A stretch of 64,000 bases of DNA from Okamejei kenojei (lineage: Eukaryota). A program made the position numbers and the translations under genes. The notes under the pieces are model-generated. The model did no database searches and was not told where the DNA came from. It worked only from the letters and a program-made list of their open reading frames with translations. The DNA is taken from contig CM069160.1 in NCBI GenBank assembly GCA_035221665.1, positions 6,944,001 through 7,008,000 of the forward strand, given 5' to 3'. Below, in pieces: positions 28,456 to 62,099 of this stretch. Each line of letters opens with the position of its first letter. Position 1 is the first letter of the stretch.

Positions 28456-29818
28456 TGGGGAGGGGGTCCGGGCGTAGGTGAAGAGAGGCAGAGGGGGACA
28501 TAAACGAGGGATAGGGCTAGAGGGAGGGGCGTGACGGGGCTATAGGTGGGACGGAGGGGGAGGAGTGGGGGGACGATGCGAAAGGGGGAGTCCATGTCGC
28601 GGGAAGAGAGGTGGTTGGGGGTGGAGGAGGGTTGGTTGAGGGAGGAGGGGTGGTTGAGGGGGAGGGGTGTTTGAGGCGGAGGGGTGGTTAAGTCGGGAGG
28701 AGTGGTTGAGGTGGTTGAGAAGGGGGGGTGGTTGACGGGGAATTAGCGCTGGGAAGAAACTGTCTCTAGAAGGGTCTCTAATCGAAATGTCATCTATTCC
28801 TTTGCTCATTGATGCTGCCTCACCCGCTGAGTTTCTCCAGCATATTTATCTACCTTCCGATCTGGGGGAGTGTGTTTTCACACTTCTACATCATTTGCCT
28901 GAATGGCGAGGGGAGAAGGGAAGAGGGCAAATGGCAAATGGTGCCTAGGTAGACCCGTTGGCGGCGAGGGTAGGTGTAAGCTGAAGACGGGTGTGTGAGA
29001 GGCAGTTGCAGTGACGGGATTAGAATGAAGCCGGAGGGAGGTCTGGGTCCATCCTCATCCCGGGGTGTGAACGGAAGTGCCGGCGGCTGGTTCCACTTCC
29101 CAACAGAAAGAAGTCAGTTACACCCGAGGCCTCGTTAGCGCCGGCCTTGTCCCTTCCTCACAGAGTCATAGAGTCCACTGCACGGAAACAGGCCTTTCGG
29201 CCCAACTTGCACATGCCGACAAAGATGCCCCATCTGCACAAATCCCACTAGTCCGCGTTTGGCCTATATCCCTCTATTATTTCCCATTCACGAACCTGTC
29301 CCAACGGCGTTTAAATGCAGTTATAGTTCCGAACTCAGCTTCCTCCTCTAGTAATTTGTTTCATACACCCACCATCTTCGATGTGAAAAGTTACCCCTCG
29401 GATATCCAATAAAACTTAAACATAGGTCCTGTGGTTCTTGATTCCCATAAACCGGCTGGGTAAAAATAGTCTGTGCATTCACCCCATCTAATTCCCTCAT
29501 GATCGTATACACATCTATGAGATTACCCCGCAGCCTCCTGCGCTCCAAGGAATGAAGTCCTACCCTGCCCAACCTCTCCCTCGAGGTCGTGACCTGGAGT
29601 CCTGGTAACATCCTCGTAAATCTTTCCTTCTCTCTTTCCAGCTATCTGTTCTGCCTTCGACTGCCGCAAGCCCTATTCAGGGCTGTTTAATATCTAACTG
29701 ATCCCTCCCTCGTGTGAGATTAATTGGAAGCGGGTGCAGTAGACACTCGCGATACTGCACGGGTTCAGCAGTTGCGCGAAAGGAAATGCGTTTTGAACCA
29801 GGATGTGGCGGAGATATA

Positions 29819-32800
29819 ATGGCTTCGAAAGAGCATGTCGACAGTTTAACCGAGGAGATAATTTGTCACCTCTGCCTGGATTTCTTCACCGATCCGGTGT
29901 CACTAGAGTGTGAGCACAACTTCTGCCGCTCCTGTATCACACAGAGTTGGGACAAGGAGGGGAGAAACTCCTGCCCGGAATGTAGAGAGGAGTTTACAGA
30001 CCGCACCCTCAGGGTGAATCGGGCCCTGGCGAGACTGTCTGAGAAATTTCGAACACTGAGCCTGAATCGGACAGAGAAGGAAAGTAAACTTCAGTGCGAG
30101 GAACATCAGGAAGAAGTGAAGCTGTTTTGTGAAACTGACAAGAAGCTGATCTGTGTGGTTTGTGCAGCTGGGCGGGAGCACAAGTCTCACAGCTTGATGC
30201 CGGTTGAAGAAGCTGTCGAAACCTACAAGGTAAAAGCAAGCCGATTTTTGATCGAATCATTGTTTAATCCTGTCTTTATCATCTAACACTTTCATTCTCT
30301 GATTCCCAAACACAATCCCAGGATCAGGTTAAAGATTCCATCGAATTTCTAAAAATAAACAAATCAGTGATCCAACAAATGGAGCAGCAACAGAAACAGA
30401 AGATTTCTAAAGTTCTGGTGAGGCTTTCCAGTTTCGATTTCCTGATCTTTTGTAGATTTGATCCGTGCGATGTGTGTAATAATAGGGCAGCGCAGTGACA
30501 CAAGTAGTTCTCGTGAGCGGGTTCGATCCTGACCTCGGGTGTTGCCCGTGTGGTTCACGCCTTCTCTCTGTGACCGCATCGAACGCCTTCCAACCCCAAT
30601 ACATGCTGGTTCAAAGATCCTAGAAACATAGAACATAGTTGCAGGAGTAGGCTATTCGACCCTCCGAGCCAGCACCGCCATTCAATATAATCATGGCTGA
30701 TCATCCAAAATCAGTACCCGTTCCTGCTTTTTCCCCATATCCCTTGATTCAATTGGTGCTAAGAACTAAATCTAACTCTGTCTTGAAAACATCCAGTGAA
30801 TTGACCTCCACTGCCTTCCGTGGCTGAGAATTCCACAAATTCATCACTCATCTCCGTTCATAAAGACCCACCACTTATTCTTAAATTGTGACCCCTGGTT
30901 CTGGATTCCCCCCCAACATCGGCAACATTTTTCCTGCATCTAGCTTGTCTAATGCCTTAAGAATTTAATGTTTCTCTAAGATACCCTCTCATCCTTCTAA
31001 ATTCCAACGAACACAAGCCCAGTCGACCCATTCCTTCATCATATGTCAGTCCCACCATCCTGGTAATTAACCTGATGAACCTACGCTGCACCCTCAAGAG
31101 CAAGAATGTCCTTCCCCAAATTAGGAGAAGAAAACTGCACATAATACTCCAGGTGTGGTCTCACCAGGGCGCTGTACAATTGCAGCAGGACATCCTTGCT
31201 CCTTGACCTCCTCGGGCAGTCACGGTGGCGCAGCGGTAGAGTTGCTGCCTTACAGCGAATGCAGCGCCGAATACCCAATCCTGACTACGGGTGCTGTCTG
31301 TACGGAGTTTGTACATTCTCCCCGTGACCTGCGTGGGTTTTCACCGAGATCTTCGGTTTCCTTCCACACTCCAAAGACGTACAGGTTTGTAGGTTAATTG
31401 GCTTGGTAAATGTAAATGTTGATTGGTTTGGTAAAACAGATTGTTTCCGTGCTGTATCTCTAAACTAAACTAAACTCAAATCCTCTCCCTATGAAGGCCA
31501 ACGCTATGATTAGCTTCCTTCACTGCATGCTTACATTCTGTGCCTGATGTACAAGTAAACCCAGGTCTCATTGCACCTTCCCTTTTCCTAATCTAACATC
31601 AATTGAATGTGAAAATGGTATTGACCCGAAACATCACCCATTCCCACTCTCCTGGGGTGGGGGGGGGGGGGGAACGAAGGGCAATGGGGACCGGGCGTGG
31701 GGGGAACTGTTGGGTGGGTGGTACAAAATGGTGAGCGGCGTGCTTTGTAACTTTGTCAGCGCCGTAGGTGATTGCTATTTGTATACATTGTGTTTGCAAG
31801 TAAATAATCCCACTGTGCATAGTCACATGTGACAATAACGTTTTCCTATTCTTATTATCCACATTGTACTGCATCTGTCATGCATCTGCCCACTCAGACA
31901 ACCTACGCGAGTCAGCCTGCAGCCTCATAGCATCCTCCTCGCAGCTTACACAGCCGCCCAGCTTTGTGTCATCCGCAAACGTGGAGATGTTACATTTAAT
32001 TCCCTCGTCAAAAAATATATTGTAAATTACTGGGGTCCAAACACTGAACATTGCGGCACCCCCAGATTCAATTGCCGACTGTAATTATCCCTGCAAAAGT
32101 GGGCGGTGGATGGATAAATGGAAAATAATGGGTACGTGAAAAGGAATAGGCAGCAGGGAATTGTATTGGGGGTAGAGGATTGATGGGTTATAAGATTACC
32201 CTCACGATATTTCAGAAGCATTTAGAGAATTGCCAATGCAAATATAATCTGTACCGAACAAATATAGAAAGATATAAACATAGAAAATAGGTGCAGGAGG
32301 AGGTCATTCGGCCCTTCGAGCCAGCACCGCCATTCATTGCGATCATGGCTGATCGTCCCCAATCAATAACCCGTGCCTCCCTTATCCCCATATCAATTGA
32401 TTCCACTAGCCCCCAGAGCTCTATCTAACTCTCTTAAATGTATCCAGTGATTTGGCATCCACTGCCATCTGTGGCAGGGAATTCCACAAATTCCCAACCC
32501 TCTGGGTGAAAAAGATTGTTCTCACCTTAGTCTTAAATGGCCTCCCCTTTATTCTAAGAATGTGGCCCCTGGTTCTGGACTCGCCCAACACTGCGAACAT
32601 TTTCCTGCATCTAGCTTGTCCAGTCCTTTTATAATTAGATATGTTTCTGTAAGATACCCCCGCATCCTTCTAAACGCCAGTGAATACAAGCCTAGTCTTT
32701 TCAATCTTTCCTAATATGACAGTCCCTCCATCCCAGGGATCAATCTCACGAACCTACGCTGTACTGCCACAATCACAAGGATGTCCTTCCTCAAATTAGG

Positions 32801-35800
32801 AGACCAAACCTTTACACAATACTCCAGATGTGGTCTTACCAGAACCCTATACAACTGCGGAAGAACCGCTTTATTCCTATACTGAAATCCTCTTGTTATG
32901 AAGGCCAACATTCCATTAGCTTTCTTCACTGCCTGCTGTACCTGCACGCCAACTTTCAGTGATGTGTGTACAAGGACACCCAGGTCTCGCTGTACCTCCC
33001 CCTTACTTAACCTAACCCCATTGAGATAATAATCTTCCCCCTTGTATTTGCCGCAAAAATGGATAACCTCACATGTATGTATGTTATACTGCATCTGCCT
33101 CGAATCTGCCCACTCACTCAACCTGTCCAGGTCACTCTGCAACCTCCTAACATCATCTTCACAGCTCACACTGCCACCCAGCTTTGTGTCATCCGCAAAC
33201 TTGCTTGTGTTGCTCCTAATTCCCTCTTCCAAATCATTAATATGTCACAGTCAAAGTCGTGAGGAAACACAATCAGTGACATTATATATTCATCTTCACC
33301 TTTCATTTCACAGGAACAGTCACTCAAACTTCAGTCCAAGGTTACATCCCAATTTGCTGAACAGCACAAGATTCTCACTGAGAAAGAGCAGCGCGCACTG
33401 GCAGATATCCGAGAGGAAGAGAATAATATTCTAAATACAATGGAGAATAATCTTGGAGGGATTCAAGAGAATTTAAAATATATTCAGGAGGAACTCCTAA
33501 AGTTGCAACAACAGATGGACCAAAAAGACAGTCTGGTGTTTCTGAAGGTGAGGGGTCACACTACAGTTTGGAGAAATGAAAGTGCGCAGTCACAAAATGG
33601 TGGGTGACATTTTAGAAATAAATGCTGCATTTACCAGTAATTCAGAACTGTGTAAATGTTCCCTCTGTTCAAGATGTTGTTGTTCCCAAACTAATTGTAT
33701 AATCCCGTATAGTCTATGGGATCTCAAGACTGCGTGGACGGAATGTAGAGAGGTGTTTATATTCTGTCGAGTTTAGAACAATGAAAGGTGATCCTATATC
33801 TGATCCCAAGGTCCACGATGGCAGTACATCTCTGGGATTCTCCAACCAAGAGACTCTGAGAGGTTTAACATGTTAGACGTATTTAAACCAGAGGGAAATT
33901 CGGGAAATTGTAATCGTAGGGAATGGGGCAAAGAGGAGGAGTTCAGTCCTCGGCTAGATAAGCCATGACCACATTGTGGGGATTAACATTGACATCTAGA
34001 ACGTGGCGCGCACATCAGATTGATTATCGCGGAACGGGCGAACCCTCACCGGGGGGCGCCGGAGGGGAGCGCTCCGTTCGCTGGCCCGCGGCAGCCTGAA
34101 GCCGCGGTTTGCGGAGCTCCAGCCGGCGCAGTGTCCGCAGCCTGGGATCCCTCGTTGGGGACCCGGGAGGAGAAGAGCTCCGACCGCCGGCCCGCGGCCA
34201 ACTTCTACCGCGAGCGCGGCGGGGACTTACCATCCTGAGCGGGGTCCCTAACCGGGGACCAATGGAGAGGAACTCCGACCGCCGGCCCTGCGGTCTGCGG
34301 TGTTTCTGGCTACGGCGCGGCGGGAACTTTAGATCTCCGACCGCCGGCCTGTAGCCTACACCAACCTGAAGCCGCGGTCTCCGGTGGGGAGGCATCGATT
34401 CAGGACTTATCTGGACCTACCTTGTCTACGCATCTGGAAGTCCGCAGCGGCGACTGCGGAGGGTTGAGGTCCCGACCACAGGGGAAATGGAGGAGGACTG
34501 ACCAAATGTTGTGCCATCCACCGCAGTGAGGTGGATATTTGGTGGATATTTGTGTAAATTTTTTATTGTGTTTTTGTGTGTTTTTTTTTCATTGTACCAC
34601 TGCTGGCACATTCATTTCACTTGCACTTTATGTGCAAGTGACGAATAAAACTGATTGTTTTATTGATTGATTGATTGATCTATATCCGGTTCCCATCAGC
34701 AGTGGGTGGTCACCATGGTGGAATTTGTCCACCTTGTTTCACCATTCTATATCATACACAGGCCATTCGGCCCATCCTATCCAGTCAAGTTTTCTGCTCC
34801 ACTCATCATCCCTTCCATCTACCCTCCACACCCGCTAACAATACCACGAATTCCAGCAGCCCTAATGTGTTTATCCCGCTCTCACTTAAAATTATCTCTG
34901 CTGTTGGCTTCAGTCCCCCCAATGCAAGTGAGGTCCATGTTCTCATGACTGCATTCCTTTCGGTTTGTGTTGAATACCATGCCACATTTCAGCTTTGATT
35001 TTTGGGTTCCCCACATGTACATATATTATTTCACCCCCAGCCATTTAAGTCCACTGATAATCTTAAATCCTATCTCATCATTCCTGACATGTTCGCCAGA
35101 TAAATTCCCAGGACCTGCCCAGTCATTGCATTGAGTTCTGTGCAAGAAGGAACTGTAGATGTTGGTTTAAACCGAAGATAGACACAATAAGCTGTAGTAA
35201 CTCAGCGGGACAAGCAGCATCTCTGGAGAGAAAGAATGGCTGATGTTTCGGGTCGAGATCCGAAGTCTGAAGAATGATCTTGACCCGAAAAGTCACCCCC
35301 TCCTTCTCACAAGAGATGGTGCCTGTCCCGCTGAGTTACTCCAGCTTTTTGTGTCTTTCTTTGCATGGAGTTCCGTCCTCTCAGTTATGGCGTCATTCTC
35401 GTGAACATTCCACGTGTTTTCCCCCATCGTCCTACATTTCTGCGGCAATATCCGCTTTCTATCTACATGACAGCAGCGATAAGAGTTGGGAAATGGGAAT
35501 TATCACAATGTTATAGGAATTTGCTGAAATTCCCGCTGTCGGGATGAGGACGGTCTATCTCAGTCAATTGAAATTTGTGTTTTATTTCTTTCAGGAGGAA
35601 GCTAGTCGCAAGCAAAGGTAGGACAACCTCTTGATGGAAACATTGTAAGGCTTTGTTGAGCAGCCGAAAAAATGTCTAAAACTCAGTTTATAACTTGCTG
35701 TTAAATATTTGCAGGGTTCGTGACGAAGCCAAACCACTGTCGGTGGTAGATGATAACTTGCTGATTGAAAAATTTGAAAATCCTTTTTTGTACAACACGG

Positions 35801-38800
35801 TATTGGCAGAAACACCTGATGCCATCAAGCAAGGTAAATATTATACCTTTTCTGTTGTTCTTGTTTCTGACATCTTTAAGTTATGCGTAGATGCAAACAT
35901 TCATGGTATTTTGGACTGAAGGGAAATTGAAGATTTGATCTTCCACCAAACACAGCTGCAGAAAAGCATCACAAGGTCAGAGAGCGATGTCGCCAGAAAC
36001 AGGCCCTTTGACACAACATGACCATGCCAACCAAATTGCCCAGCCAAGCTAGTCCCACTTGCCTGAGTCTGACACATATTCTTCCAAGTATTTCTTATTC
36101 ATGTCTCTACCCAACAGTCTGTTGTAGCTGCCTTGACCACTTCCTCTGTCAGTTCGTTCCATGCGTGCAACAAAGGTTAAACTGTTATAATGGGTGACTT
36201 CAATCTACATATAGATTGGGTGAATCAAATAAGCAGGGGTGCTGAGGAAGAGGATTTATTGGAATGTTTGCGGGATAGTTTTCTAAACCAACATTTGGAG
36301 GAACCAACGAGAGAGCAGGCTATTCTAGACTGGGTATTGAGTAATGAGGAAGGGTTAGTTAGTAGTCTTGTTGTGCGTGGCCCCTTGGGCAAGAGTGACC
36401 ATAATATGGTTGAGTTCATTAGGATGGAGAGTGACATAATTAGTTCAGAAACAAGGGTTCTCAACTTAAAGAAAGGTAACTTTGAGGATATGAGACGTGA
36501 ATTGGCCAAGAAAGATTGGCAATTGATTCTTAAAGGGTTTACGGTGGATGTGCAACGGAAGGCATTTAAAGACTGCATGGATGAACTACAACAATTGTTC
36601 ATCCCAGTTTGGCAAAATAATAAATCAGGGAAGGTGGTGCATCCGTGGATAACAAGGGAAATCAGGGATAGTATCAAAACAAAAGATGAAGCTTACAAAT
36701 TAAACTGAAAAAGCAGCCTACCAGAGGACTGGGAGAAATTCCAGAAGAGTCCAGAAGAGGAGGACAAAGGGCTTAATTAGGAAAGGGAAAAGAGATTATG
36801 AAATGAAATTGGCAGGGAACATAAAAACTGACTGCAAAAGTTTTTATAGATATGTGAAGAGGAAAAGATTAGTTAAAACAAATGTAGGTCCCTTGCAGTC
36901 AGAAACGGGTGAGTTGATCATGGGTAACAACGACATGGCAGACCAATTTAATAACTACTTTGGTTCTGTCTTCACTAAGGAAGACATAAATAATCTGCCG
37001 GAAATAGCAGGGGACCGGGGGTCAAATGAGATGGAGGCACTGAGTGAAATCCAGGTTAGCCGCGAAGTGGCGTTAGTTAAATTGAATGTATTAAAGGCCG
37101 ATAAATCCCCAGGGCCAGATAGGCTGCATCCCAGAGTACTTAAGGAAGTAGCCCCAGAAATAGTGGATTCATTAGTGATAATTTTTCTAAACTCTTTAGA
37201 TTCAGGAGTAGTTCCTGAGGATTGGGGGGTAGCTAATGCAACCCCACCATTTTAAAAGGGGGGAGAGAGAAAACGGGGAATTACAGACCAGTTAGTCTAA
37301 CATCGGTAGGGGGGAAACTGATAGAGTCAGTTATTAAAGATGAGATAGCAGCACATTTGGAAAGTGGTGAAATCATTGGCCAAAGTCGGCACGGATCTAG
37401 GAAAGGTAAATCATGTCTGACGAAGCTTATATAATTTTTCCAGGATGTAATTAGTAGAGTGGATAAGGGAAAACCAGTGGATGTGTTATATCTTGACTTT
37501 CAGATGCCTTTCGACAAGGTCCCACATAAGAAATTCGTATACAAACTTAAAGCACACGCTATTGGCGGTTCAGTATTGATGAGGATAGGGAACTGGCTGG
37601 CAGACAGGAAGCAAAGAGTAGGAGTAAACGTGTCCTTTTCAGAATGGCAGGCAGTGACTAGTGGCACACCCCTGCTATTTACAATATATATTAATGATTT
37701 GGACGAGGGAATTGAATGCAACATCTCCAAGTTTGCGGATGACACGAAGCTGGGGGCAGTGTTAGCTGTGAGGAGGATACTATGAGTCTGCAAGGTAACT
37801 TGGATAGGCTGGGTGAGTGTGCAAAGGCATGGCAGATGCAGTATAATGTGGATAAATGTGAGGTTATCCACTTTGGTGGCAAAAGCAGGAAGTAGACCCT
37901 TATCTGAATGGTGGCCGATTGGGAAAAATGGGAGATGCAACGAGACTTGGGTGTCATGGTACACCAGTCATTGAAAGTAGACATGCAGGTGCAGCAGGCA
38001 GTGAAGAAAGCGAATGGTATGTTAGCATTCATAGTAAAATGATTTGAATATTGGAGCAGAGATGTTCTACTGCAGTTGTACAGGGTCTTGGTGAGACAAC
38101 ACCGGGAGTATTGCGTACCATTTTGATCTCCAAATCTGAGGAAATACATTCTTGCCATAGAGGGAGTACAGAGAAAGTTCACCAGACTTATTCCTGGGAT
38201 GTCGGGACTTTCATATGAAGAAAGACTGGAAAGACTCGGCTTGTGCTCGCTAGAATTTAGAAGATTGAGGGGGGATCTTCTAGAAACTTACAAAAGTTTT
38301 AAGCCGTTGGACAGGCTAAATGCAGGAAGATTGTTCCCGATGTTGGGGAAGTCCAGAACAAGGGGTCACAGTTTAAGGATAAGGGGGAAATTTTTTTAGG
38401 ACCGAGATGAGAAAAACATTTTACACACAGAGAGTGGTGAATCTCTGGAATTTAACTTCGGAGTCACGTGAGTGACTACGTGAAGAAGCCCCGCCTGGCG
38501 CTAGAACGGCATTACGTCGACGCTGACGGCAGAAGCAAGAGCTGCAGAGGCAGCTCCTCGCAGCGGTCGGAACGGACCCGCAGGTAAGTGCAAGGAAAAA
38601 TTAGGGGACGTTCTAAAAAAGACGTTACGCTGGTAGAACCAGCAAAAATAAAAGTAAAAATTCAAAAAATCAGAGTCACGCTGGCGTACTGATCCAGCCT
38701 AGATTATAAAAATTAAAAATGGATAAGTCTCAAAGAAAGATTTCGCGGGTAAAAAGATCATCACGGGGAGAAGCTAAAGAGTCGGGACAAGAGATTAGTG

Positions 38801-41800
38801 CGTATCCGGTTCCGATACCGGTGGCCGCTGATTCACCCGTTAGTGAGACTATAATTTCTCCAGAAATACAAACCACGGAGGAAAATGTTCCTAGAAAAAG
38901 TAAAAAGAAATCCGTGAGGCCAGTGGTTTCTGATGATGACTCTGATAATGAAAGTCCTCCGGATAATAAAGCTATATGGCTTAAAATGGAACATATGGAG
39001 AAAGTGCTCCGAAATATTATGAGACAAGGGTCAAAGTACCCAGAAATTTCCCAAAATGACCCTGAGGGGTTTGAATATCCAGAAAATGGCTATGTGCCAA
39101 ATTGGGAATTTGAAACTCCAGACCCAGGACTAAGGGTGGAGGAAGTCTCATTGGATGAAATTCCAGGTGTATCAGGGCTGCAAAAGTCAGACCCTGCAAG
39201 TGGTGATGTGGATTATGAGTGCACACCACAAATAAAAAAAAGAAGAGGCCATATGTGCCTGATATGGCAAAAGATTTTGCTATACCTGAAGGAAGTGGTG
39301 AGGCTATGGAAGAAAACCTAGCTGCCAGTATTAATTAGATGGTATCTCACCAACTTCAAGATTCTGTGATGGTTGAAACAGCAGAATTATATAAAACACC
39401 GGAAAATTGCACCTCATTAAAGGTACCTACGGTTATTCCGTCTATATGGACACCTATGACTCCAGTCATGAGAGGACAAGAAATAAGATTTCAAAGAATC
39501 CTCAAACTGATTTCAGCTGCCATTACTGCTTTTGGAAGACAAATGGAAGGGTCGGAAATGGTTAAAATCCAAAGAGATACTTTGGGCTTATTGTGCAATT
39601 CCTTTTATGAAATTAATTGTATGAGGAAAATTGCGATTCGGCCCATATTTCATCCAAGATTTGCAGGTCTGTGTCGATCAAGTGTTGTTCAAGCACCTGG
39701 TTATCTATTTGGAGAGAACCTGCCTAAACAAATAAGAGAAATGGATGAAGAGGCTAAATCTATTAGCCACATGAGACCTTTCGTTTTTGGACAAAAAAGG
39801 TATTTTTTGTCAAGGAGGGGATTTGATTTTGGAAACAGATGCAGGAATATGATAAGAAAATATTACCATCCAACACAGCCTAATGTTCACCCGTATACGG
39901 GGAGAAGGAGCCCACCACGTTCATATGGAGAGGTACAAAAACTTTATTCTATTCTTAAAGAAACTGTGGACAAATCTCCAGTTGGAGGGAGATTACAAAT
40001 GTTTTATGATGAATGGCTTGCCATTACATCTGACCGGTTTATTTTACAAATAGTTACAGGAGCTACTATAACATTTAATGCTTATGTTTTCTGCTATTGA
40101 GGAAGCAGAAGTTAATGCGGAAATTGACAAATTGTTTAAAAAAGGTGTTATTGAAAAAACTGTTGAGCATAAACACCAATTTGTGTCAAATATCTTTCCG
40201 AGAAATAAAAAAGATGGTGGTTGCAGAATTATTCTGGACCTTACAAACTTTAATACATTTGTCGAGTATAAACATTTCAAGATGGAAACGTTCAACACTG
40301 CAAAACATTTGATATTAGCAGGTTGTTATATGGCTACAATTGATTTAAAGGATGCGTACTATTCAGTACCAATACATCGATTTTTTCGAAGTTATTTAAA
40401 ATTTAATTGGCTGGGACAGCTGTGGCAATTTAAAGCTTTACCAAATGGCTTAAGTTCAGCTCCCAGGCTCTTCACAAAGCTGTTGAAACCAGCTTTAGCG
40501 CAATTAAGAGCACAAAAGCACATCATTATGGCTTATCTGGATGACATTTTAGTTGTCAATAATAATCAGGAATCAGCTGGAAAATCAGTTTCAGCAACTA
40601 GAACTTTGTTTGAAAAATTAGGTTCCTTGATTCATCCAATTAAGTCCCAGCTGCAGCCAGCACAGTCAATTAACTATCTAGGGTTTGTGATCAACTCAGT
40701 CACCATGTTAGTAACTTTGCCAATGTTGATGATATTTTAACGGTATGTTGGGCCTTATTCACAAACCTTATCCCTCCATCCGAGAAGTAGCGAAGGTTAT
40801 TGGTAAACTAGTAGCAGCATTTCCTGCAGTAGAATTTGGTCCATTACATTACCAAAACCTTCAAAGGGACAAAATAAGAGCTCTAAAAAAGCGAACAGGC
40901 CCATTTTGATAGGTCACAAAAGAAGCTTTATTGAATTGCAATGGTGGATTGAAAATGCTACACAAGACAATACAGTGAAGTTTTTTTACAACCAGATGCA
41001 AGTGCTCTCGGATGGGGGGCGACAGATTGGACAACACAACACAGACACATGGGTGGAGTGAACCCAGGATTGTGGTGGCAGACAACAGATCAAGGGTGTT
41101 TAAGGACAACACAGAATGGACGTTGAACCCAGTAGTTTTCAGTAAAATTGTGATTCAATATGGGTTACCAGATGTTGATGTGTTTGCATCAAGATTAAAT
41201 CATCAATTGCCTAAATATGTGTCTTGGGAACCAGATCCAGATGCAGTAGCAGTAGATGCGTTTTCACTACATTGGGGGAATATGTTCTTTTATGCTTTCC
41301 CTCCATTTGCTCTGGTTCAGCAATGTCTGAAGAAAATAGAACAAGATTCTGGCACAGGATTATTGGTGATTCCAAATTGGCCGACACAACGGTGGTTCCC
41401 GTTGATGTTAAATATGATTAAAGAACCATATATGTCAATTCCTAGCAGCATTGATTTGTTAATTAAACCAGTAACTAAAGAAATTCATCCATTACATGTT
41501 TATATGAATTTGTTAATCTGCAGGTTTTGACCAGACCACTACAAGGGCTTGGATTGTCGGATAGAACTATGGATGTTATAGTCGCATCATGGCGAGATAG
41601 CACTCAGAAACAATATATGACACATATAAAGAAATGGGAAGTTTTTGTAGACAATCAAATATATCTTATCATACTGTGAACATTTTAAACATATTGGAGT
41701 TCCTTGCTGAGTTGCATTTTGAGCAAGCACTTAAGTTATAGTGCTATTAATAGTGCGCATAGTGCTTTATCATCCTATTTAGGTCAAATTTCTGACCAGG

Positions 41801-44800
41801 AATCAATTGGATCACATCCATTAATATCCAGATTTATGAAAGGAATCTTTAACAAAGATCCACCCAAACTAAGATATACAGAAATTTTGGATGTCAGCAT
41901 TATACTTACTTTACTTAGGCAATGGACTCCAATCGAAGTTATATCTTTGGAAATGTTAACATTTAAATTAATAATGTTAATGACATTGGTATCAGCACAA
42001 AGGGTGCAAGCATTACAAATGCTACGTTTAGATTGTATGCATGTGGCTTCAGATAACATTGTGTTTTACGTTTACGATCCGATCAAACAAAGCAGACCAG
42101 GGAGAACTGGAGCGAAGGTAATGTTTCAAGCTTACCTTATTGATCCAACGTTGTGTGTAGTTAGACATTTGACTCAATATATAAAAATTACCAAGACTCT
42201 TCATGGTGATGAAAAAGCGTTAATAATTACGCATAGGAAACCACACACAAAAGCATCAGTACAAACAATTTCAAGGTGGTTAAAACAGGTGTTACTATTA
42301 GCAGGAGTAGACACTGATGTGTTCAAATCTCACTCCACTAGGGCAGCAGCTACGTCCGCGACGAAGTTACAGGACGTACCACTCGAACACATTTTAGAAA
42401 CCGCAGGGTGGTGTAAAGAAGAAACTTTTTCAAAGTTCTACGATAAACCTGTCCGCACAATGACAGGCTTTGGACACGCGGTGTTGGGTTCACTATAATC
42501 ACCTGCTTTGTTTCGCTATCGATTTATATTATTGATGATGTTATCACTTATATCTTATATCACTTTGTAATGGTTTCCCCAGATGTGGAAAAGGGGTTAT
42601 TATATGTTCTTTTGTCATTAAAATTATGAAAAGAAACTAAAACTGATCTGGTAAAAGGTTATTTACTCATGTATGTGTTGACCTTGCCGGACTGTCGTAT
42701 GGATTGATTCTACGACATAAAAAACACAGAAGCTTCAAAATCTTCACGTAGTCACTCACGTGACTCCGAAGCAAAATAGTAAGATTAAACGAGAACTTAC
42801 CAGTTCGAAGTTTGATCGTTATTTTATGAGGAGTAACGATGAAGGATTACGTGCCCTCCACTCCCGACCCTCATAAAATAAATGATCATCTGGTAGTTCT
42901 AAATCTATGTTGAGCCTTACTATCTTACTCCAGCTATTATCTTCTGTGTTTTTCATCCCGCTGCTTTGAAGTATGCCGTTCTAGCGCCAGGCGGGGCTTC
43001 TTCACGTAATCCCTCATCGTTACTCCTCATAAAATAACGATCAAACTTCGAACTGGTAAGTTCTCGTTTAATCTTACTATTCTCTACCACAGAAGGTAGT
43101 TGAGGCGACTTCATTGGCTATATTTAAGAGGGAGTTAGATGTGGTCCTTGTGGCTAAAGGGATCAAGGGGTATGGAGAGAAGGCAGGTATAGGATAGTGA
43201 GTTGGATGATCAGCCATGATCATATTGAATGGCGGTGCAGACTCGAGGGGTATACTCCTGCACCTATTTTCTATCTTTCTATTCATACACTATGCATTGA
43301 CTGAAAAGGCTACTCCTTTTTACTGTTTCCACTCTCACCTTACACTGATGCACTCTGGGTTTAGACTCTCCTATCTTGGGTAATATACTGTGGATCTTCA
43401 CCTTGTCTGTGCACCTTATATAGATTTCATACACATCTATCAAATCACACGGATGGGCTCCAAAGATAAATGTCCCTGCCTGTCCAACGTCTCCTTATAA
43501 TCCAGCTCTTCAGACCTGATGAAATTATTGTAAATCATTTACCACCCTCTCTAATTTGCTAACGACCTTATTGTGTCAAACACTGTATTTAATGTCCTGA
43601 CCTATGAAATAATGAGGGACAAACACACTCTTCACCACCCTGTCTGTCACTGTTGCATCTTCCATGGCACAGTGTACCTGCAGCCTGAGATCTCTCAGTT
43701 CTATAAAGCTCCCCTTTACTGTGTATGTCCTGACCTGGCCTCTGTCAGCAAAGTGCATCACCTCACCTTCACATGAATAAATCCCACCTGCCGTTCCTGA
43801 GCCTATTGGCCCAGTTTACAGGGATCCTATTTACTCTCACATAATTTTCTTCACTCCCCACAATGTCACCAATTTTGGTTTCATCTGCAAACTTATTAAC
43901 CGTGCAACCTGCATACACCGCCAATCGTTTATATAAATAAGAAACAACAGTGGACTCTGTCTCCAGTCTGGAAAACGACCCATTACCAACATCCTCTGTC
44001 TGCGACCTTCAGGTAAATGTAGTGTTCCATCGGCCAATTCACCCCGGATTCCATGAGATCCAACCTTCCAGAGCGGCCTCTCATGCGGTGTGTAGAAGTT
44101 GTGTCTCGCAGAGGGCAGTGAATATCTGGAATATTGTGCCCAAGATAAAAGCTCAGTTATTGGATATCTGTAACTTGGCTACAAATTAATATTTGATAGA
44201 TCTACAAATTAAGATTATGGGGAAAATCACTCAGAAGAGGAATTGGTGCCAGCTTCGATCAGCAATGATCACATTGACTGGAGGGGCAAGCCTGAGGAGC
44301 GGATCATAATCCTGCTCCTGTTTTCTTGTTTTCCTTGCTCCTGTGTACCGATAAATTGACAGACGTGACACAGAGGAAAATGGAGCAAAGATTAACAATA
44401 TTTACCCTCCCCCTCCCCCTTCTCCCCTTCCCCCCTCCTCTCTCCCCCTTCACTCCTCTCCCATTCTCCCCTCCCTCCCCTCTCCCCACCACCTCCCCCT
44501 ACTCCCCCTACTCCCCCACCACCCTCTCATCCCCCTCCCCCCTCCCCCCCGTGTGTGGGCGGTGGTTAGTGTGCGTGTGAAGCCGCAGCCCCCCACCACG
44601 TCGCAACCGTACGTTGAGGGTACGGAACACAGCGGTCTCCCCTCTCTCCCCTCTCTCTACCCAGCCACCCCCTAGCTCCCTCTCCCCCCCTCTACCCCCC
44701 CCCCCCCCCGTGTGTGTGTGTGTGTGTGAGGTGGTTAGTGTGCGTGTGAAGCCGTAGCACACCCCCCTCCCCAACCGTGCGTTGGGGAACAGACCCAGCG

Positions 44801-47729
44801 GGTCTGCATTTGGTCTCTCCCCTCCTCTCTCTTCCTCTCTTTCTCTCTCCGCTCTCTCTCTCTCCCCTCNNNNNNNNNNNNNNNNNNNNNNNNNNNNNNN
44901 NNNNNNNNNNNNNNNNNNNNNNNNNNNNNNNNNNNNNNNNNNNNNNNNNNNNNNNNNNNNNNNNNNNNNNNNNNNNNNNNNNNNNNNNNNNNNNNNNNNN
45001 NNNNNNNNNNNNNNGGGTGAGTGAGTAGACTGGGCTTGTGCACGCGAGCGTTTGGGGGTATTGGAGGAGGTCTCAGTGAAACACAAAGTTCTTAAAGGGC
45101 TCAGTGGGCGGGATGCAGGGAGGATGTTTCCCCTGTCAGAGGGGTCTGGAGAATGGGCACTATCAGAATGTGGGCTGCACCATGTAGGACAGAGATACGG
45201 AGACATTACTGCACGAAGAGACTGGGGAACCTTTGAAATTTCCTGCACCAGTGGCTGTGGAGACTCAGTCATTCAGTGCTCTTGTAGTGGAGAGCCATGG
45301 TTGTACATTACAGAATCAGGCCCTTCGGCCCATCGTCTACATGGCCACCTTTTTTCCAGCGATGCTAATCGATTTGCCCCCATTACATCGCTATTCCTCT
45401 AAACCTCACCTATATGTGCCTCAAATAGTGATTATACCTCACTCCACCACCTCCTCTGTAGCATGTTCCAGATATCGCCCACTCCCAGTGTAAAGAACAC
45501 TTCCAACTCAGATCAACTTTAAATTTCCTTGCTGTAAAGATAAACATGCACTCTCTTGATCTGATATCGCTGCATGCGAATACGGTTTTGATAATCTACC
45601 CTATATCCTGCTGCAGATTTTGACTACCTTCCCCGCTATCCACAATTTTTGCGTCCTCCACAGACTTACTTGTCACACCTCCTACATCCATGAAAATATA
45701 ACATGAACAGCTACGGTTACAGCACCGATCGCTGCTCCACTCCACCAGTCACAGATATCCAAGTATGGAAATCATCCATCTACCGCTACCTTCTACCTCC
45801 AACCACCAAGCCAATTTTGGATCCGTTTTACCAGCTCGCCTTCGATCCCACCTGCCTTTCCTTTCTGGACCAGCCTTACACTGTCAAGTTTCACATTGTC
45901 AAGTCTCTCGGTGAAGTTCTTTATTGGTTTACAATGATATCAGTGTGCTCTTGGTTGTACACACCCATCAAATCCACCTCTGAACCCCGTATCTTTTCAG
46001 TGACCCGACAAGCGCAAGTCTCTGTTAAGGTTCATGTCTTAAAACAACTCACAATAAGTTAGGTACACCAACACAAGCTTGACTGATCATTAGCCAGCGA
46101 GATTGCCAGGGATACAAAGTAAAGTATACAACAGATACTTAACCGTCCTGAGCCGCCACTCTAATGAACAAAGACATACAGCATCTATTTATTATATTTT
46201 GGTAACATAGTCACATGTTTATACAGAGTAGCAACAATGACGTCTAACACAAATAAATCACAGAGTACACCCATTCAAAGTATTCTTGTTAGTAATACAA
46301 AAGTTGTCATCTTGTGGTTCTATTAATCACAAACTGTTGATCACACACATCAAAACAACAGGAACTTAGTCAACATTTACAATTCTGTCTTAGCAATGTA
46401 ATCATGATGTCAGCTACCAACTAGAAGACTTGTGTTTACAGAAGCTGTCACCTTCTCAGGAAATACATACACTCTCACAATTGAAATGGTTTTTTTCTTT
46501 GGGCATGACAGGAAGCAGCTTGAATGTAGGCCTCTAACTTCCTGATTACCCAGCTCTTGTACAGCTCAGAATTACAAAGCTATAATTTTCTCAGAGCCCA
46601 AATAAGTCAAATTCATCTTTACTTAATCAATTCTAATTATAGAATATGTTGCTATTAACTAGGATATTGTCATCTCCACCCATTCTGTCTAACACCCGAT
46701 CAGTCAAGCTCTGCTTCCTTCCATGGTCCAAGCCACCCCTCCCTCTCTCTCACCCTCCACTCAAAGAAACAGGGGCAGGTTATCTGGCCCCTCATGTCTA
46801 CTCTCATTCATTAAGATCATGGCAACTACACCCCACAACTCTACCTCCTCTTTAACAACCTCAAATTGCCACTCGCCTCAATATCCTCTTCTCCGGCATG
46901 CCTCCATGTCTGAATAGCCCGCTTCATTTCTCCACCCCCACCGCAATCCCCCTCACTCTCCGCACTCGTCCACCATCCCCCACCTCACGAAATTACCCTC
47001 TCCGTCCCGAATAAAAACTCTGTGACAGAAGACTTTTATCCACCTGATGTAGTTGGGGTGAAACTCGGGGCAGGTAGTCACTTGTCCGCCCGCCTGTGCC
47101 AGGGGCCGAGCGACTTCTCCCCCGGTCCCGGGGCCGCGCTGCCCGATTCTCCCCCCGATCCCCGGGGACTCTCTGATTCTCTGCTTCTCTTCCCAGTGTC
47201 CGTCACTTTGGATGTGGAAACAGCGCATCCGCTGCTCGAGGTATCTGAGGATCGAATGAGGGTGAGACTGAGCGGGACTAGGAGGCGTCTCCCTGACACT
47301 GGGAAGAGGTTTACAGGCTGGCGGTGTACGCTGGGATCGGAGGGATTCACATCGGGGAGACATTACTGGGAGGTGGAGGTGGCGGGGAGTCGGCGCTGGA
47401 GTCTGGGAGTCGCCGCAGAATCTGTGGAGCGGAAGAAACGGGACACACTGACCCCGGATACTGGAGTCTGGAGCATCGGGCGGTGGGGTGACGGGTTTGT
47501 TGCATTCACCTCCCTTCCATCCACTCTTCCCGCCCGTTCCTTCCCCGGGAGGGTGGGAATTTATCTCAGTTACGAGTCCGGGACTGTTTCATTTTACGAT
47601 GCGGACACCAAGTCCCATCTCCACACCTTCACTGGGAATAAATTCACGGAGAAACTTTATCCTTTCTTCGAGCCTTGGCATGAAGACCAGTGGCTGAGAA
47701 TCTGCTCCGGTTCCGCTCCGGGTGTGTAA
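29819..47729 (+). CDS. TRIM E3 ubiquitin ligase (RING / B-box 2 / coiled coil / PRY-SPRY; TRIM39/TRIM69/NF7-like), 471 aa. Exons 29819-30229, 30322-30417, 33314-33547, 35595-35617, 35715-35833, 47197-47729
   Basis: All introns are GT-AG with compatible phases (0,0,0,2,1). Exon lengths 411+96+234+23+119+533 = 1416 nt form an open frame ending in TAA. C3HC4 [21 protein letters not shown]; B-box CEEH..C..D..CVVC..H..H; [41 protein letters not shown]. Confidence 0.93.
30430..30442 (+). promoter_or_regulatory. Consensus ISRE (AGTTTCGATTTCC) at the start of TRIM intron 2
   Basis: Exact fit to AGTTTCNNTTTCY, 12 nt after the exon 2 boundary. Confidence 0.45.
30620..33243 (-). mobile_element. Two CR1 3' fragments in TRIM intron 2 (about 30620-32060, split by a SINE; 32270-33243)
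   Basis: [10 protein letters not shown] and LVRPHLEY peptides; (ATAGAAAC)n tails on the + strand. Confidence 0.85.
31214..31478 (+). mobile_element. HE1/V-SINE-type SINE nested in a CR1
   Basis: GGTGGCGCAGCGGTAGAGTTGCTGCC head; (CTAAA)n tail. Confidence 0.85.
34015..34680 (+). mobile_element. GC-rich non-autonomous retroposon-like repeat with internal repeats
   Basis: CTCCGACCGCCGGCC occurs three times; 3' hairpin TCACTTGCAC..GTGCAAGTGA, then AATAAA and a (TTGA)n tail. Confidence 0.6.
38719..40100 (+). pseudogene. DIRS gag-like ORF (frameshifted: 38719-39321 and 39339-40100)
   Basis: Position in the element; [15 protein letters not shown] and [11 protein letters not shown] motifs typical of DIRS gag; ends in the PVGGRL start of pol. 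Confidence 0.75.
40078..40740 (+). pseudogene. DIRS reverse transcriptase (RNase H region downstream is deleted or frameshifted)
   Basis: [46 protein letters not shown]. Confidence 0.92.
41012..41530 (+). pseudogene. DIRS DNA N6-adenine methyltransferase-like domain
   Basis: [47 protein letters not shown]. Confidence 0.85.
41704..42498 (+). CDS. DIRS tyrosine recombinase (N-terminus frameshifted)
   Basis: SAQRVQAL (catalytic R), IKQSRPG (K), HSTRAAATS (HxxR), [11 protein letters not shown] (Y). Confidence 0.9.
   Translation: MLSCILSKHLSYSAINSAHSALSSYLGQISDQESIGSHPLISRFMKGIFNKDPPKLRYTEILDVSIILTLLRQWTPIEVISLEMLTFKLIMLMTLVSAQRVQALQMLRLDCMHVASDNIVFYVYDPIKQSRPGRTGAKVMFQAYLIDPTLCVVRHLTQYIKITKTLHGDEKALIITHRKPHTKASVQTISRWLKQVLLLAGVDTDVFKSHSTRAAATSATKLQDVPLEHILETAGWCKEETFSKFYDKPVRTMTGFGHAVLGSL
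44870..45014. other. Assembly gap
   Basis: N run. Confidence 1.
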
Positions 47730-57067: not shown

Positions 57068-57552
57068 GAGCATAGAACATAGAACAGTACAGCACAAGAA
57101 CAGGCTCTTTGATCCACAATGATTGTGCTGAACATGATGCCAAGACCAATTCTTATCTCCTTGCACATAATCCATATCCTTCCATTCCCTGCACATTCAT
57201 GCGCCTATGTAAAAGTCTATTTAATGCCACTACCATAGCTGCTTCCACCACCACCCCCGGCAGCACATTCCAGTCACTCATCACCCTTGGCGTAAAACAC
57301 TTGCCCTGCACATCTTTTTTAATCTTTGCCACTCATTGCAAAGCTATACCTGCTCTTATTTGATATTTCCTTCCTGGGTAAAATGTCTGATAGTCTACTC
57401 TATCTCTACCCCTCACAGTCTTATATATTACTGTCAGGTCTCCCCTCAATCCCCGACATTCCAGAGAAAACAATCCAAGTCTGTCTAACTTTTCCCTGTC
57501 ACCAATACCCCACTAATCCATGCATCATTCCGGTAGACCTCCTCTGCATCCC
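57068..57552 (-). mobile_element. Old CR1 3' fragment directly downstream of, and overlapping, the class I stop codon
   Basis: Minus strand GGGATGCAGAGGAGGTCTACCGGAATGATGCATGGATTAG resembles CR1 'VQRRFTRMLPGL'; tail (CATAGAA)n on the + strand. Confidence 0.7.
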
Positions 57553-60500
57553 AAAGGAAGCTGATTGTGCTTCATGGTCAATGCAGTCCTCTCCTGGTCT
57601 CTGCTGTTGTCAGCTGGTCCCTGTTCATTTAGAGTTTTTCTCCTTTTCTCCTTCATCCAGCAACCAATTCCAACGATGATCCCCACGAGAATAAGAGGAA
57701 TGATTACAGCTCCAGTCACGATCCTAATCTTTATATCTTCATTCGCTGCGCTCTCTGTAGTCATATATAGTGCAATTTAAAAATTTATTGATCAATAACA
57801 ACTTTGTAATTATTTTATTATCTACATTAAACTAGCACTGTTCATATCTAATTACAAAGTAATAAAGTTTTTGATTTATGTAATTGTCCAGACGATAGAT
57901 GCGTTTTAAAAAATCGATGAAAATCTTTAAAATACATATTAGCATTGTGGCTTTGTGATTTTATCTGCAGCATTTAATTATGAATTTAAAGAATGAAGTA
58001 CGTCAGAAATAGATGACTATTTGCAGTGTAGCTGTCAACAAGGCTATTTTCTTATGTTGACAATTGTTATTATAACAAATAAAAGTTAACCCATTCATAG
58101 TTGATAACACTTCAAAGGTTTTAAACTGTTGATAGTTTAACAATGGTTAACATTACTGCCTATTCGTACTGACCAGCAATTTTAACCATGTCAGCTTCGA
58201 CCTGGTGTGAAGGGCCAAGCTTACTCTAACTTCTCTCTAACTTCTACAGGTGCACAACAGAGAGCATGCTGAGGTTGCATCGTGGCTTGGTTCAGCAACT
58301 TGAGTGCCCAGGAGCGAAAAAGACTACAAAAAGTAGTAACCACTGCCCAGTCCATCATCGGCTCTGACCTCCCTACCATCGAGGAATCTATCGCAGTCGC
58401 TGCCTCAAAAGGGATGGCAGCATCATCAAGGACCCACATCATTCTGGCCACACACCCATCTCCCTGCTACTTTCAGGGAGAAGGTACAGGAGCCTGAAGA
58501 TTGCAACGTCAAGGTTCAGAAACAGCCTCTTCCCCACAGCCATTCAACTCAACACAACTCTGAACATTAATAACCCATTTTCTCTTTATTTGCACTTTAT
58601 CTATTATTGATTCATGTGTGTATAAATTTATATAATGCTATATGGACACACTGATATGTTCTGTATTCATGCCTACCATATTCTCTTGTGCTGAAGCAAA
58701 GGAAGAATTTAATTGTCTTATCTGGGACACATGACAATAAACTCTTTTGAACTCTTGATCTTGAGTTCTTTGCAGAGGTCTTGTCTGGAACAAATAAGTC
58801 AGCGACAGAATAGGTGCTGCTACTTCAGACTGATAATGGGGTCGGTTATGGTATCACTATTAGCCTTTTGTGTAACTAGCTACTATCATAAAATTAGTTT
58901 CTCCCAGTGACTGCGTGGGTTTTGTCTGGGTGCTCCCGTTTCCTCCCACCCTCCAAAGAAATACGGGCTTAAAGGATAATTGGCTTATGTAAAATTGTAA
59001 ATTGTCCCCAGTGTGTTGGATAGTGTAAATGTACGGGATGATCATTGTTCGGCAAGGACTCAGTGAGCTGAAGAGCCTGTTTCTGCACCATATCTCTAAA
59101 GGGGAAAGTCTAAATCCACAGATTAGGTAAGAGTGTGAGTCGACGCTGTTATGGCAGTCCAGGAGGTTTATGGTCTCAAGTGATCAGACTCATTGACTTG
59201 CCACTTACCCTGTGGAACATTGACTCCCTGCAGCATAGTTGCATGCTCGATGTAGCAGGAGAATGTTGCCACATCTTCTCCACTCAGCTGAATTGTATTC
59301 TTCAGCTGGTAAGTCCCATCCGAATTAGGCAACAGATGACTGGATTCAGACCAGGGGACCCCCTCACCATCTTTCAGCCACGTTACATCGATGGTCGGTG
59401 GGTAGAAGCCTGTGACAAGGCACGAGAGCTTCAGTGATTGCGACCCATCACGTTTAATCCCAATAAACGCCTCAGGGGTTTCTGCAAGTAGAAGAAGCGT
59501 CAGAATCAGTGAAGATGAAGAAAAGCCTTGAATTGTAAGATCACTCCAACTCCCCTCTTTCCCTATCAGAGATTTTCTCTAGCTGAACAAAGTTTCCAGC
59601 CCAGACACAAAATGCTGGAGTAACTCAGCAGATGAGGCAGCATGTCTGGAGAGAAGGAATGCCCAGAGATGCTACCTGATCCACTGAGTTACTCCAACAT
59701 CTTCTATCTTCGGTGTAAACCATCATCTGCAGTTCTATCTTGCACAAGGTTTCCAACCTTTTCTCTTTTCATTTTGCATTTCTGACAAAACAACAAAACA
59801 TTTCGTTTTAATATCAATGACATGCTCTTTATCTTGGCTCCAGACTTTAGCTGACAGCGCAGGCGGAAGGGGAATGCAGTGCCCAATGGAGGAGTATAAC
59901 TCACCATTTGATTGATACTGTAGACAAGATTGCTTCTACTTGTTCATGAATCTCTGCTGAATAATAACACAATAATAATAACATATTCCAAGAGGGAATG
60001 GGAGGAAGAAGTTCTTCAACCAGAGAACTTGGATGTCACCATCCTAAGGAGTAATAGAGGAAAATGGAGAATCTGATTCGGTTTCTGATCAGCACGGCAA
60101 CAGACCCTTCAGACCACAAGGTTGGTGCTGAACATAAGGCCAAGATACATATCCCTCCATTTCCCGAATATCTACGTGACTGTGGATAGAGGACACTGGT
60201 GCAATATTTATCTTTCACTTGCACTTCCAACCCACTGGATCCATCTAAGAGGCACGTTGCCAGACAATTTACTGATACCCTCGCCCAAGAACAGAGTGGC
60301 GAAGCAGTCGAGCTACTGTCTTATAGCGCCAGAGACCCGGGTTTGTTACTAACTACGGGTGCTTGCCTTTACAGAGTGTGTACGTTCTACCTGTGACCTG
60401 CGTGGGTTTTATCCGAGATCTTCGGTTACCCCTCACACTCGAAAGACGTACAAATTTGTAGGTTAATTAGGTTGGTATTGATGCAAATTGTCCCTATTAT

Positions 60501-62099
60501 GTGCAGGATAGTGTTAGTTTGCGGGCATCGCTGGTCGGTGCGGTCTCGGTGGGCCAAAGGGCCTGTTGCCGAACTGTATCTCTAAACTAAACAATTGCTC
60601 AAGTGACAGCCTGACGTGCAGGATATTTCCCACCTGATCTATCTAGAGGATAACACCTGGTCCTACCAGTCAGAGTACATACGCCGTATACCTCTACTCT
60701 GTAGTGCTTCTTGTCCACACTCCAGATATATCAGCAGCCACTTCACACAGTCCTTCTCCAGGAGATCTTTGAAATACTTGTTCATGAAGGTGTTGACATT
60801 CCACCGATCTACTAGCACCTGGAAATCTGGACTTAGTGTAATCCAGCGCATTCTGTCCTTGTCGAAAGCACAGGCATCCTCCCCATCATAACCCAGTCTG
60901 ACAAACCCATCAGTGGAATTGTCACTGTCCACTTCACAGCCGCAGAAACCCTGGACAAAGAAAACAGCTGGGGCTGAGGTGGATGATTTGGGTTGGGGGG
61001 AGGGGATGGAGAGGAGAGACAATTAACAAATCAGTTCTCAGCGTGGTACAAACAGGCAGAACAGAACACAACATAGAGCTGTACAGCACAGGAGCAGCTT
61101 TAGTTTAGAGATACTGCGCGGAAAGAGGCCCTTCAGCCCACCGAGTCCGCAACGACCAGTGATCCCCGCACATTAACACTATCCTACACACACTACTTTT
61201 TTTCCCAACTTTCTCCACCCTACTCCATCACTAAATGGTTCTGGTCTCATATGTTTTCTGCCTATTTTTCCACAGAATGCTGCCTGACTCACTGAGTTCC
61301 TCCTGTTTGTTTTTAATTCAGATTGGCAGCGTCTGCAGTTTGCTGTTACTCCATCTTAGCACAATTGATGATCAGTGTGGATTCAGTGAGCAGAAGGGCC
61401 GATATCCATGCTGTGTGACTCAATGACTCTATGACCAATGGTCTATATACTGAGGGCATGAACTAACGTCAAGTGTTGAGGGGGGATGCTTTAATGTTGC
61501 GGATGTAACACTGAAGCAGTTCTGCTGTGTCAGAAGGGCAGAACTCAGACTTCTGCACTGTCGTACATAAAGAACAGAGGAAGAAGTGCATTGTCAGATG
61601 GGCAATGCTACAGAGCCAACAGCTCAGTCTGAAGGTTAAGGCAATGCAGATGGGAGGGACATCAAGGCTGTAGCACTGTCTGGGATTGCTACACTCTCTG
61701 AGGATTGTTGCCAATATTGAGGGAATGCTAGATTAACAGACTATTATTACTGAGGGAATAATTTCATAAATAACAAAGTTTATCACAATACTCTAGTACA
61801 TGTTGGGTGTCTACCCCAAGTCTGGTCAGGACACTTACTCGAGACACCATGTTGCTGTTGGTAAACTATCTCAGCATTTCCTCTGACAATCCCATGAAAA
61901 CCTGCCACTGTGATGGTCATTGAAGCCCAGTGATCCTGCGGGAAAGACTGGGCCATCCATCGTTGTCTGGGAACAGCCCGATCTAGTGTGCTGTCAAAAT
62001 ATGCGATCTGGAGGTCATCCAACATTGCCACCATACTGTACTCAGGCAGCTCACTCAATCCATGGTTCAACAGGTAGTAAAATGCAAGATGGTGAAAAT
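57525..62099 (-). CDS. Non-classical MHC class I heavy chain. Exons: alpha1 62099-61839, alpha2 60967-60692, alpha3 59481-59209, TM/cytoplasmic 57754-57525. Leader exon not found in the window
   Basis: All introns are GT-AG phase 1; exons of 261, 276, 273 and 230 nt are open. alpha1 FHHLAFYYLL..LPEYSMVAMLDDLQIAYFDS..AVPRQRWM; alpha2 VQGFCGCEV..GYDGED..LEKDCVKWLLIYL; alpha3 LSCLVTGFYPPTIDVTWLKDG..LPNSDGTYQL..FSCYIEH; TM IVTGAVIIPLILVGIIVGIGCWM followed by KEKRRK. Confidence 0.93.
58225..58750 (+). mobile_element. Rex1/Babar-type LINE 3' fragment
   Basis: AWFSNLSAQERKRLQKVVTTAQSIIGSDLPTIE; tail GACAATAAA..(TCTTGA)n. Confidence 0.75.
60290..60592 (+). mobile_element. HE1/V-SINE-type SINE in the class I alpha2-alpha3 intron
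   Basis: Homologous to 10396-10680. Confidence 0.75.

Follow-up and report, generated by a model that had tools for sequence, protein, structure and literature searches.

In a 64,000-nucleotide stretch of Okamejei kenojei DNA (GenBank assembly GCA_035221665.1, contig CM069160.1, positions 6,944,001 to 7,008,000; this whole stretch is called the window here), the minus strand carries a major histocompatibility complex (MHC) class I heavy-chain gene with four open, in-phase exons (alpha1, alpha2, alpha3 and transmembrane/tail). The gene is real and probably functional, and on the tests run it is distinct from the shark UGA and UFA genes, from MR1 and from the classical class I genes. It belongs to a lineage conserved in sharks and rays that appears to be the third in a group with UFA and UGA, distinct from both. 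Judged from its residues, the product is likely to be a functional non-classical molecule that pairs with beta2-microglobulin (beta2m) and holds, for recognition by a conserved receptor, a fixed ligand of lipid type, with loading outside lysosomes. An earlier, sequence-only reading of the window had named several possible homes for the gene, and its option of an undescribed lineage fits best: by sequence the gene is not UAA, UBA, UCA/UEA, UDA, UFA or UGA.

Four intact exons

The exons of the class I gene are:

61839..62099, minus strand: alpha1 exon, 261 nt; F7, H59, Q84, N86 glycan site absent, uncharged helix at residues 59-74
60692..60967, minus strand: alpha2 exon, 276 nt (start at 60973 if a second in-frame AG, 6 nt upstream, is used); G97, C99, C101, NST sequon, A123, C124, L143, R146, W147, F156, L159, C164, W167, Y171, C174
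59209..59481, minus strand: alpha3 C1-set exon, 273 nt; two canonical cysteines, P235 and Q242 present
57525..57754, minus strand: connecting peptide, transmembrane helix and cytoplasmic tail in one exon, stop-terminated; no tyrosine or dileucine sorting motif

The three domain exons have AG/GT ends, are all in phase 1 and contain no stops, and Pfam matched them to MHC_I (alpha1), MHC_I (alpha2) and C1-set (alpha3). The sequence-only reading had placed the gene at 59209..62099, where the exons are indeed intact, but the gene is longer: the transmembrane/tail exon at 57754-57525, 80% identical to the end of the Leucoraja orthologue, had been overlooked. Both alpha2 acceptors, at 60973 and 60967, are in frame, the upstream one being that of the NCBI batoid models and the downstream one fitting the shark lengths.

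Residues of the groove

Residues were read off an alignment to the classical Triakis UAA, the row on which the HLA numbers were anchored, and were scored by lists of 40 groove positions, of outward-facing helix positions and of peptide anchors. Against Triakis UAA the window gene has F7, H59, Q84, A123, L143, R146, W147, L159, W167 and Y171. Among nine peptide anchors (Y7, Y59, R/Y84, F/Y123, T143, K146, W147, Y159 and Y171), two are kept (W147 and Y171) and seven replaced, the replacements F7, H59, Q84, A123, L143, R146 and L159 being exactly those called by eye in the sequence-only reading. Its statement that W147 and Y171 alone survive was too narrow, as W167 is kept too and K146R is a conservative change.

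Other features that it had noticed were also seen in the alignment. The N86 glycan site is lost (residue 86 is H), while NST in the first loop of alpha2 is the sole sequon of the ectodomain; alpha2 has five cysteines (C99, C101, C124, C164 and C174); and residues 59-74 of the alpha1 helix include no D, E, K or R. Of the proposed beta2m contacts, Q96, D119/G120/D122, P235 and Q242 are kept, but W60 was counted in error, since it is not a heavy-chain residue: the W60 of that interface belongs to beta2m itself.

A lineage conserved in sharks and rays

Orthologues were found in 13 genera (Leucoraja, Pristis, Mobula, Hypanus, Hemitrygon, Pristiophorus, Heptranchias, Hemiscyllium, Chiloscyllium, Stegostoma, Cetorhinus, Mustelus and Scyliorhinus), where they are annotated only as 'MR1-like' or 'MHC-Ib'. 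Because the same residues recur in these orthologues, the changes in the class I gene are not those of decay, and the earlier view of an intact gene, which its open exons also favour, could be upheld. Identity of the lineage to the window gene is 68-92% in alpha1 and alpha2, which excludes a chance origin of the residue pattern, and 48-82% in alpha3. The closest protein, the little skate orthologue, is 89% identical over 269 columns (92% in alpha1 and alpha2, 82% in alpha3). Limited protein searches brought up no holocephalan or bony-vertebrate member.

Most species have one or two genes. The Heptranchias cluster (row P0008) has 11 members over several scaffolds; the copies examined, four full-length ones among them, look near identical, and the multiplicity could be either a recent expansion or assembly duplication. 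In little skate a second, degraded copy (row P0160, XP_055486496.1) lies on another scaffold, in a model that lacks alpha1 and has a broken alpha2.

All 12 aligned lineage rows carry the alpha2 sequon and the same replacements at 59, 84, 123, 143, 146 and 159. Of the 40 groove positions 24 are invariant, against 54 of the other 138 in alpha1 and alpha2 and 25 of 91 in alpha3 (Fisher's exact test, groove against other alpha1/alpha2 p 0.029, groove against alpha3 p 0.0007, both rough as the rows are related), and 13 of 23 outward-facing helix positions are invariant as well. This pattern is opposite to that of a classical gene and would be expected of a fixed ligand shown to a fixed receptor.

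That the groove is hydrophobic, as the sequence-only reading had it, was borne out by residue composition. By mean hydropathy at the 40 groove positions, a measure of residue composition, the 12 lineage rows rank 1-12 of 51 (0.99-1.34), compared with 0.23-0.71 for UGA and -0.13 for classical UAA, and 2-3 of the lineage groove positions are charged. The next rank, 13 of 51, is held by a lungfish class I protein (XP_043924323.1, row P0099), which has a similar LNHG loop and is unplaced in the trees.

Position among shark class I genes

PMC12562908 names the shark class I lineages UAA, UBA, UEA, UDA, UFA and UGA, and the PMC10751288 supplement gives query sequences for UAA, UBA, UCA, UDA, UFA, UGA and UHA, with none labelled UEA. 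Labels on our UEA/UCA, UDA and UBA rows were assigned by eye from those queries, none of which, again by eye, resembles the lineage more than UGA does. Trees were built from 51 rows, from 36 rows (alpha1-alpha2 alone and alpha3 alone) and from 23 rows with an approximately unbiased (AU) test; they omit two gapped models (P0003, P0010), the degraded P0160 and most of 150 representatives, include a single UFA row, and hold no CD1 sequence, a motif scan of the fetched proteins having found none. 'Gcirratum_UCA' is read here as UEA.

The sequence-only reading had proposed such a phylogeny, and in it the lineage formed a separate clade with 100/100 support, within which batoids split from sharks. 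It fell outside UAA/UBA, and outside the UEA/UCA, UDA and UBA clades in the 51-row and alpha1-alpha2 trees. Grouping with UAA/UBA was rejected by the AU test in the 23-row tree (p-AU 0.00013 under the model used), in agreement with the non-classical status first suggested. UGA came out as sister of the lineage with 99/85 support in the 51-row tree, starred only there, and UFA stood next to the pair with 98/93 (51 rows), 98/95 (alpha1-alpha2) and 86/81 (23 rows).

The nearest named relative is nevertheless not the same gene. True UGA genes are present in little skate (P0026, P0169), sawshark (P0014, P0022) and thorny skate, and since little skate and sawshark each hold UGA beside the lineage gene, the two are, from these sequences, paralogues older than the shark-ray split. 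The separate clade and this coexistence rule out UGA orthology. Orthology to UFA was likewise ruled out: identity to basking shark UFA (P0147) is 18-34%. The titles of PDB entries 8GM8 and 9CH4, together with orthologue checks, spoke against the gene being UFA or UGA itself. By eye, the 9CH4 sequence is the 'Gcirratum_UGA' query and 8GM8 the 'Gcirratum_UFA' query of the PMC10751288 supplement, where 'Lerinacea_UGA' likewise stands among the UGA queries. Three similar Callorhinchus genes (P0050, P0224, P0228) share one 49-kb contig, one of them being labelled UGA in that supplement; they do not join elasmobranch UGA in the 51-, 36- or 23-row trees.

A model of the sawfish orthologue, made from a 92-row alignment and standing in for the window protein, has the class I fold (predicted local distance difference test, pLDDT, 94). 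Its best fold match is PDB entry 9CH4, whose title reads 'shark nonclassical MHC class I, UGA' (Z 28.8, root-mean-square deviation (rmsd) 2.0, 267 aligned), which is also the best PDB sequence match. The fold search covered 50 rows, with UFA 8GM8 and human CD1 not among them; other scores against the model were Z 23.5 for UFA 8GM8 and Z 25-26 for HFE, ZAG and FcRn. It is chiefly in the groove that the window gene resembles UGA, with 19-20 of 40 positions in common with four UGA rows and 4-15 with 13 other rows; at non-groove positions identity to UGA is an unremarkable 48-52 of 138. Such a distribution supports a similar class of ligand for the two.

Cysteines and the cytoplasmic tail

The five alpha2 cysteines had raised the prospect of extra disulfides, which did not hold up, as the extra cysteines do not co-vary as partners. 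C99 is present in 12 of 12 lineage rows and in none of 39 other class I rows, C124 in 5 of 12, batoids only, and C174 in 9 of 12. As three sharks that carry C99 (Mustelus, Heptranchias and Hemiscyllium) lack both C124 and C174, a conserved extra disulfide is unlikely. The thiol of C99, which falls at a position of the groove floor, is probably free and unpaired. On the model of MR1, whose K43 bonds metabolites, Cys99 might capture an acyl or electrophilic lipid covalently and the adduct be shown to an invariant lymphocyte receptor via the conserved helix surface, a long shot that these residues would allow.

The tail of the window gene contains no tyrosine, and no YxxPhi or dileucine motif was found in the last 45 residues of any of 14 orthologue tails. 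Loading outside lysosomes is proposed because the tail is without a sorting motif.

Possible signs of transcription

Contigs from sequencing run X3 are suggestive only of transcription of the class I gene. One matches 62099-61869 (alpha1), preceded by 21 unaligned letters; another matches 59482-59209 (alpha3), with 38 unaligned letters besides; and X3 contig sequence also lies over 57494-57705, at the transmembrane/tail exon. Both breaks, in alpha1 and alpha3, coincide with predicted splice sites, at a depth of about 4. Runs X1 and X2 had zero depth in bins inside alpha1 and alpha3, and the alpha2 bin was uncovered by any run, which was not counted as absence.

The proposed ligand and its rivals

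In the reading that we prefer, F7, H59, Q84, L143 and L159 would abolish the hydrogen-bond network that holds peptide ends, and the small floor residues G97 and A123 would make room for an acyl chain, with Y9, Y22, V114, L116, W133, F156 and L159 lining it. The heavy chain would likely pair with beta2m and fix a lipid or other fatty ligand in the hydrophobic groove; that the window protein binds lipid is something we infer from these residues. Lysosomes would play no part in loading, which would happen along the secretory pathway or at the surface. A single conserved receptor would recognise the outward faces of the helices, which are conserved too; this is probably a T-cell receptor of limited diversity or a natural killer (NK)-type receptor.

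Several observations weigh against this proposal or parts of it. The link to UGA is weaker outside the 51-row tree (89/65 in alpha1-alpha2, 87/48 in 23 rows) and is absent from the alpha3-alone tree, which resolved no deep link; as it is mainly the groove that resembles UGA, convergence there could account for part of the sister signal. The lead in fold score is small, chicken BF2 at Z 27.9 lying within 1 of UGA. Binding of CD1d-like lipids by UFA and UGA, a point in favour of the proposal, is reported as a personal communication in PMC12562908, and for UGA the claim is second hand. A peptide or lipopeptide could make use of W147, W167, Y171 and the basic residue 146, all of them retained. X3 is RNA by guess only, 6 of 231 (alpha1) and 11 of 274 (alpha3) of its contig positions are mismatches to the window, and the joints listed for it include no exon-exon joint for the class I gene. 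No leader exon was found in 62100-64000, the 1.9 kb that reach to the window end: scans for signal-peptide-like exons gave 2 strict candidates and 30 relaxed ones (best 8 examined), none signal-peptide-like, and tblastn with leader-bearing shark orthologues gave no leader match there. Finally, little skate P0160 shows that dead copies of the lineage exist.

The retained residues leave some room, unlikely as we judge it, for a fixed hydrophobic peptide or lipopeptide, with an acyl chain at the A-pocket end and the peptide C-terminus on R146/W147, as in chicken YF1 with N-myristoylated ligands. In comparison with the sawfish model, YF1 structures that hold myristoylated ligands reach Z 26.8-27.2, and R146, W147, W167 and Y171 are all kept, but with Q84, L143 and A123 most of the C-terminal anchor would be gone. 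An invariant groove is also found in the fish Z lineage, whose members bind peptides; the Z-like rows, unlike the lineage, retain their anchors, and their grooves are charged (hydropathy -0.05 to -0.25).

It is quite improbable that the groove is closed, or holds a structural lipid only, in a receptor or carrier that works through its conserved outer surface like HFE, FcRn or ZAG. Four invariant glycines (69, 72 and 76 in the alpha1 helix region, 97 on the floor) might allow the helices to close up, conservation of the outward surface is strong (the 13 of 23 given above), and HFE, ZAG and FcRn score Z 25-26. Such a molecule, however, sits poorly with groove positions that are at least as conserved as the outward ones and shared specifically with UGA, and with a gene that seems placed in the MHC-Ib cluster.

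We regard it as very unlikely that the window copy is a recent pseudogene without leader exon or expression. The failure to find a leader in the 1.9 kb upstream, the dead little skate copy and the odd or missing N-termini of several NCBI orthologue models could be read in that way. Set against them are four open exons with intact splice sites, at which the X3 contigs end, identities to little skate (92% in alpha1/alpha2, 82% in alpha3) that follow the usual pattern of the lineage, and the normal signal peptide of shark orthologues (rows P0004, P0008), the window ending only 1.9 kb upstream. A diverged classical UAA or UBA gene, which would have the same fold and exon plan and whose known structures score within about 1-2 Z of UGA, can be dismissed almost entirely on 20-36% identity per domain, the AU rejection and the lost anchors.

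Linkage and the rest of the window

In little skate, the accessions of the orthologue (XP_055486430.1) and of a UGA copy (XP_055486429.1) follow one another, and the two share a 127,421-base scaffold, as matched by size. Six shark orthologues lie on chromosomes of the same size as those of UEA-like genes, and for a Heptranchias copy the scaffold size matches that of two such genes. The sawfish MHC table of PMC10751288 lists LOC127585976, near TRIM and GPR139-like genes, under the orthologue's product name and marked only 'MHC-Ib', a match that rests on name and not on accession. From these placements we infer that the lineage is MHC-linked, and it appears to lie within the MHC-Ib cluster.

A TRIM gene stands tail to tail with the class I gene in the window; near the probable sawfish orthologue the TRIM39-like genes of the same table are on its 5' side.

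29702..47729, plus strand: TRIM gene; RING and B-box at 29702-30286, PRY/SPRY at 46914-47729 (Pfam)
33263-33607, plus strand: probable coiled coil of the same TRIM gene

Within its span, at 38710-42498 on the plus strand, reverse transcriptase and tyrosine-recombinase open reading frames stand in a row, the recombinase just below the Pfam cut-off, which suggests a DIRS-type retroelement. A Tc1/mariner-like transposase fragment, judged by eye from the list of open reading frames, lies at 4468-5133 on the minus strand. Rfam gave no match in the window.

Comparison with known class I systems

A literature search, with most subscription journals outside its coverage, found no description of the lineage; the chances are about even that literature beyond that coverage, such as the primary paper on UFA and UGA, already names it, e.g., as a UGA subtype, and the finding would then be a new species record only.

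From UGA the window gene is well separated, at 34-43% identity per domain, yet the lineage and UGA have in common T66, H71, G72, G76, G97, A123, F156, L159 and D163, none of which occurs in more than 3 of 34 other rows, and the window gene carries the whole of a UGA-type groove signature defined here from the alignment (G72, G76, G97, A123, F156, L159 and D163). Both are of low copy number in most species. UGA retains Y7, Y59, K146 and the N86 glycan, with F99 and F143 besides, whereas the lineage has F7, H59, R146, C99 and L143, with the glycan site shifted to alpha2. Skate UGA tails (P0166, P0172) end in RRDYQNI, a YxxPhi motif that lineage tails are without; the tail of human CD1b carries a motif like YQNI. 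Sawshark UGA models have no YQNI-type tail motif.

UFA, described as CD1-like (PMC10751288), falls in the same wider group in the trees and likewise has a hydrophobic groove, but its basking shark orthologue is 34% (alpha1), 18% (alpha2) and 31% (alpha3) identical to the window gene and has 4 of 38 groove positions in common with it. UEA/UCA, UDA, UBA and UAA have the same fold and lie on the same MHC chromosomes as the lineage, matched by equal chromosome size, with 20-38% identity per domain and in separate clades; against UAA/UBA rows the window gene is 20-36% identical.

MR1, the name that NCBI gives the orthologues automatically, has high phmmer scores and, like the lineage, a conserved alpha1/alpha2. 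The key residues of MR1 are K43, which forms the Schiff base, and the groove arginines R9/R94. At the place of K43 both the sawfish orthologue and the window gene have Ala, an MR1-like row has two arginines where the window gene has Y9 and G97, and in the 51-row tree MR1 has no affinity to the lineage. The MR1-like function entertained in the sequence-only reading fails at these residues.

By analogy, the lineage is likely to work like tetrapod CD1, with which it shares a hydrophobic, conserved groove, lost peptide anchors and kept beta2m-contact residues. Chicken CD1-1 matches the sawfish model at Z 27.0 (rmsd 2.4, 261 aligned), beside 28.8 for UGA and 27.9 for chicken BF2; identity in the CD1 structural alignments is 21-25%, and CD1 is absent among the 60 best PDB sequence hits. 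CD1b, c and d have a tyrosine-based endosomal motif in the tail, a sorting motif that the lineage is without.

UFA and UGA are in use as an argument for equal age of lipid and peptide presentation. PMC12562908 lists innate-like T cells of cartilaginous fish as unknown, and given the conservation of the lineage, one tetramer reagent would likely serve to look for them in several species. If our reading is true, a small family of lipid-type presenters existed already in sharks and rays, possibly split by trafficking route like mammalian CD1a-d, in which the third paralogue would be distinctive for its more hydrophobic and strongly conserved groove, its different glycan site and its lack of an endosomal motif.

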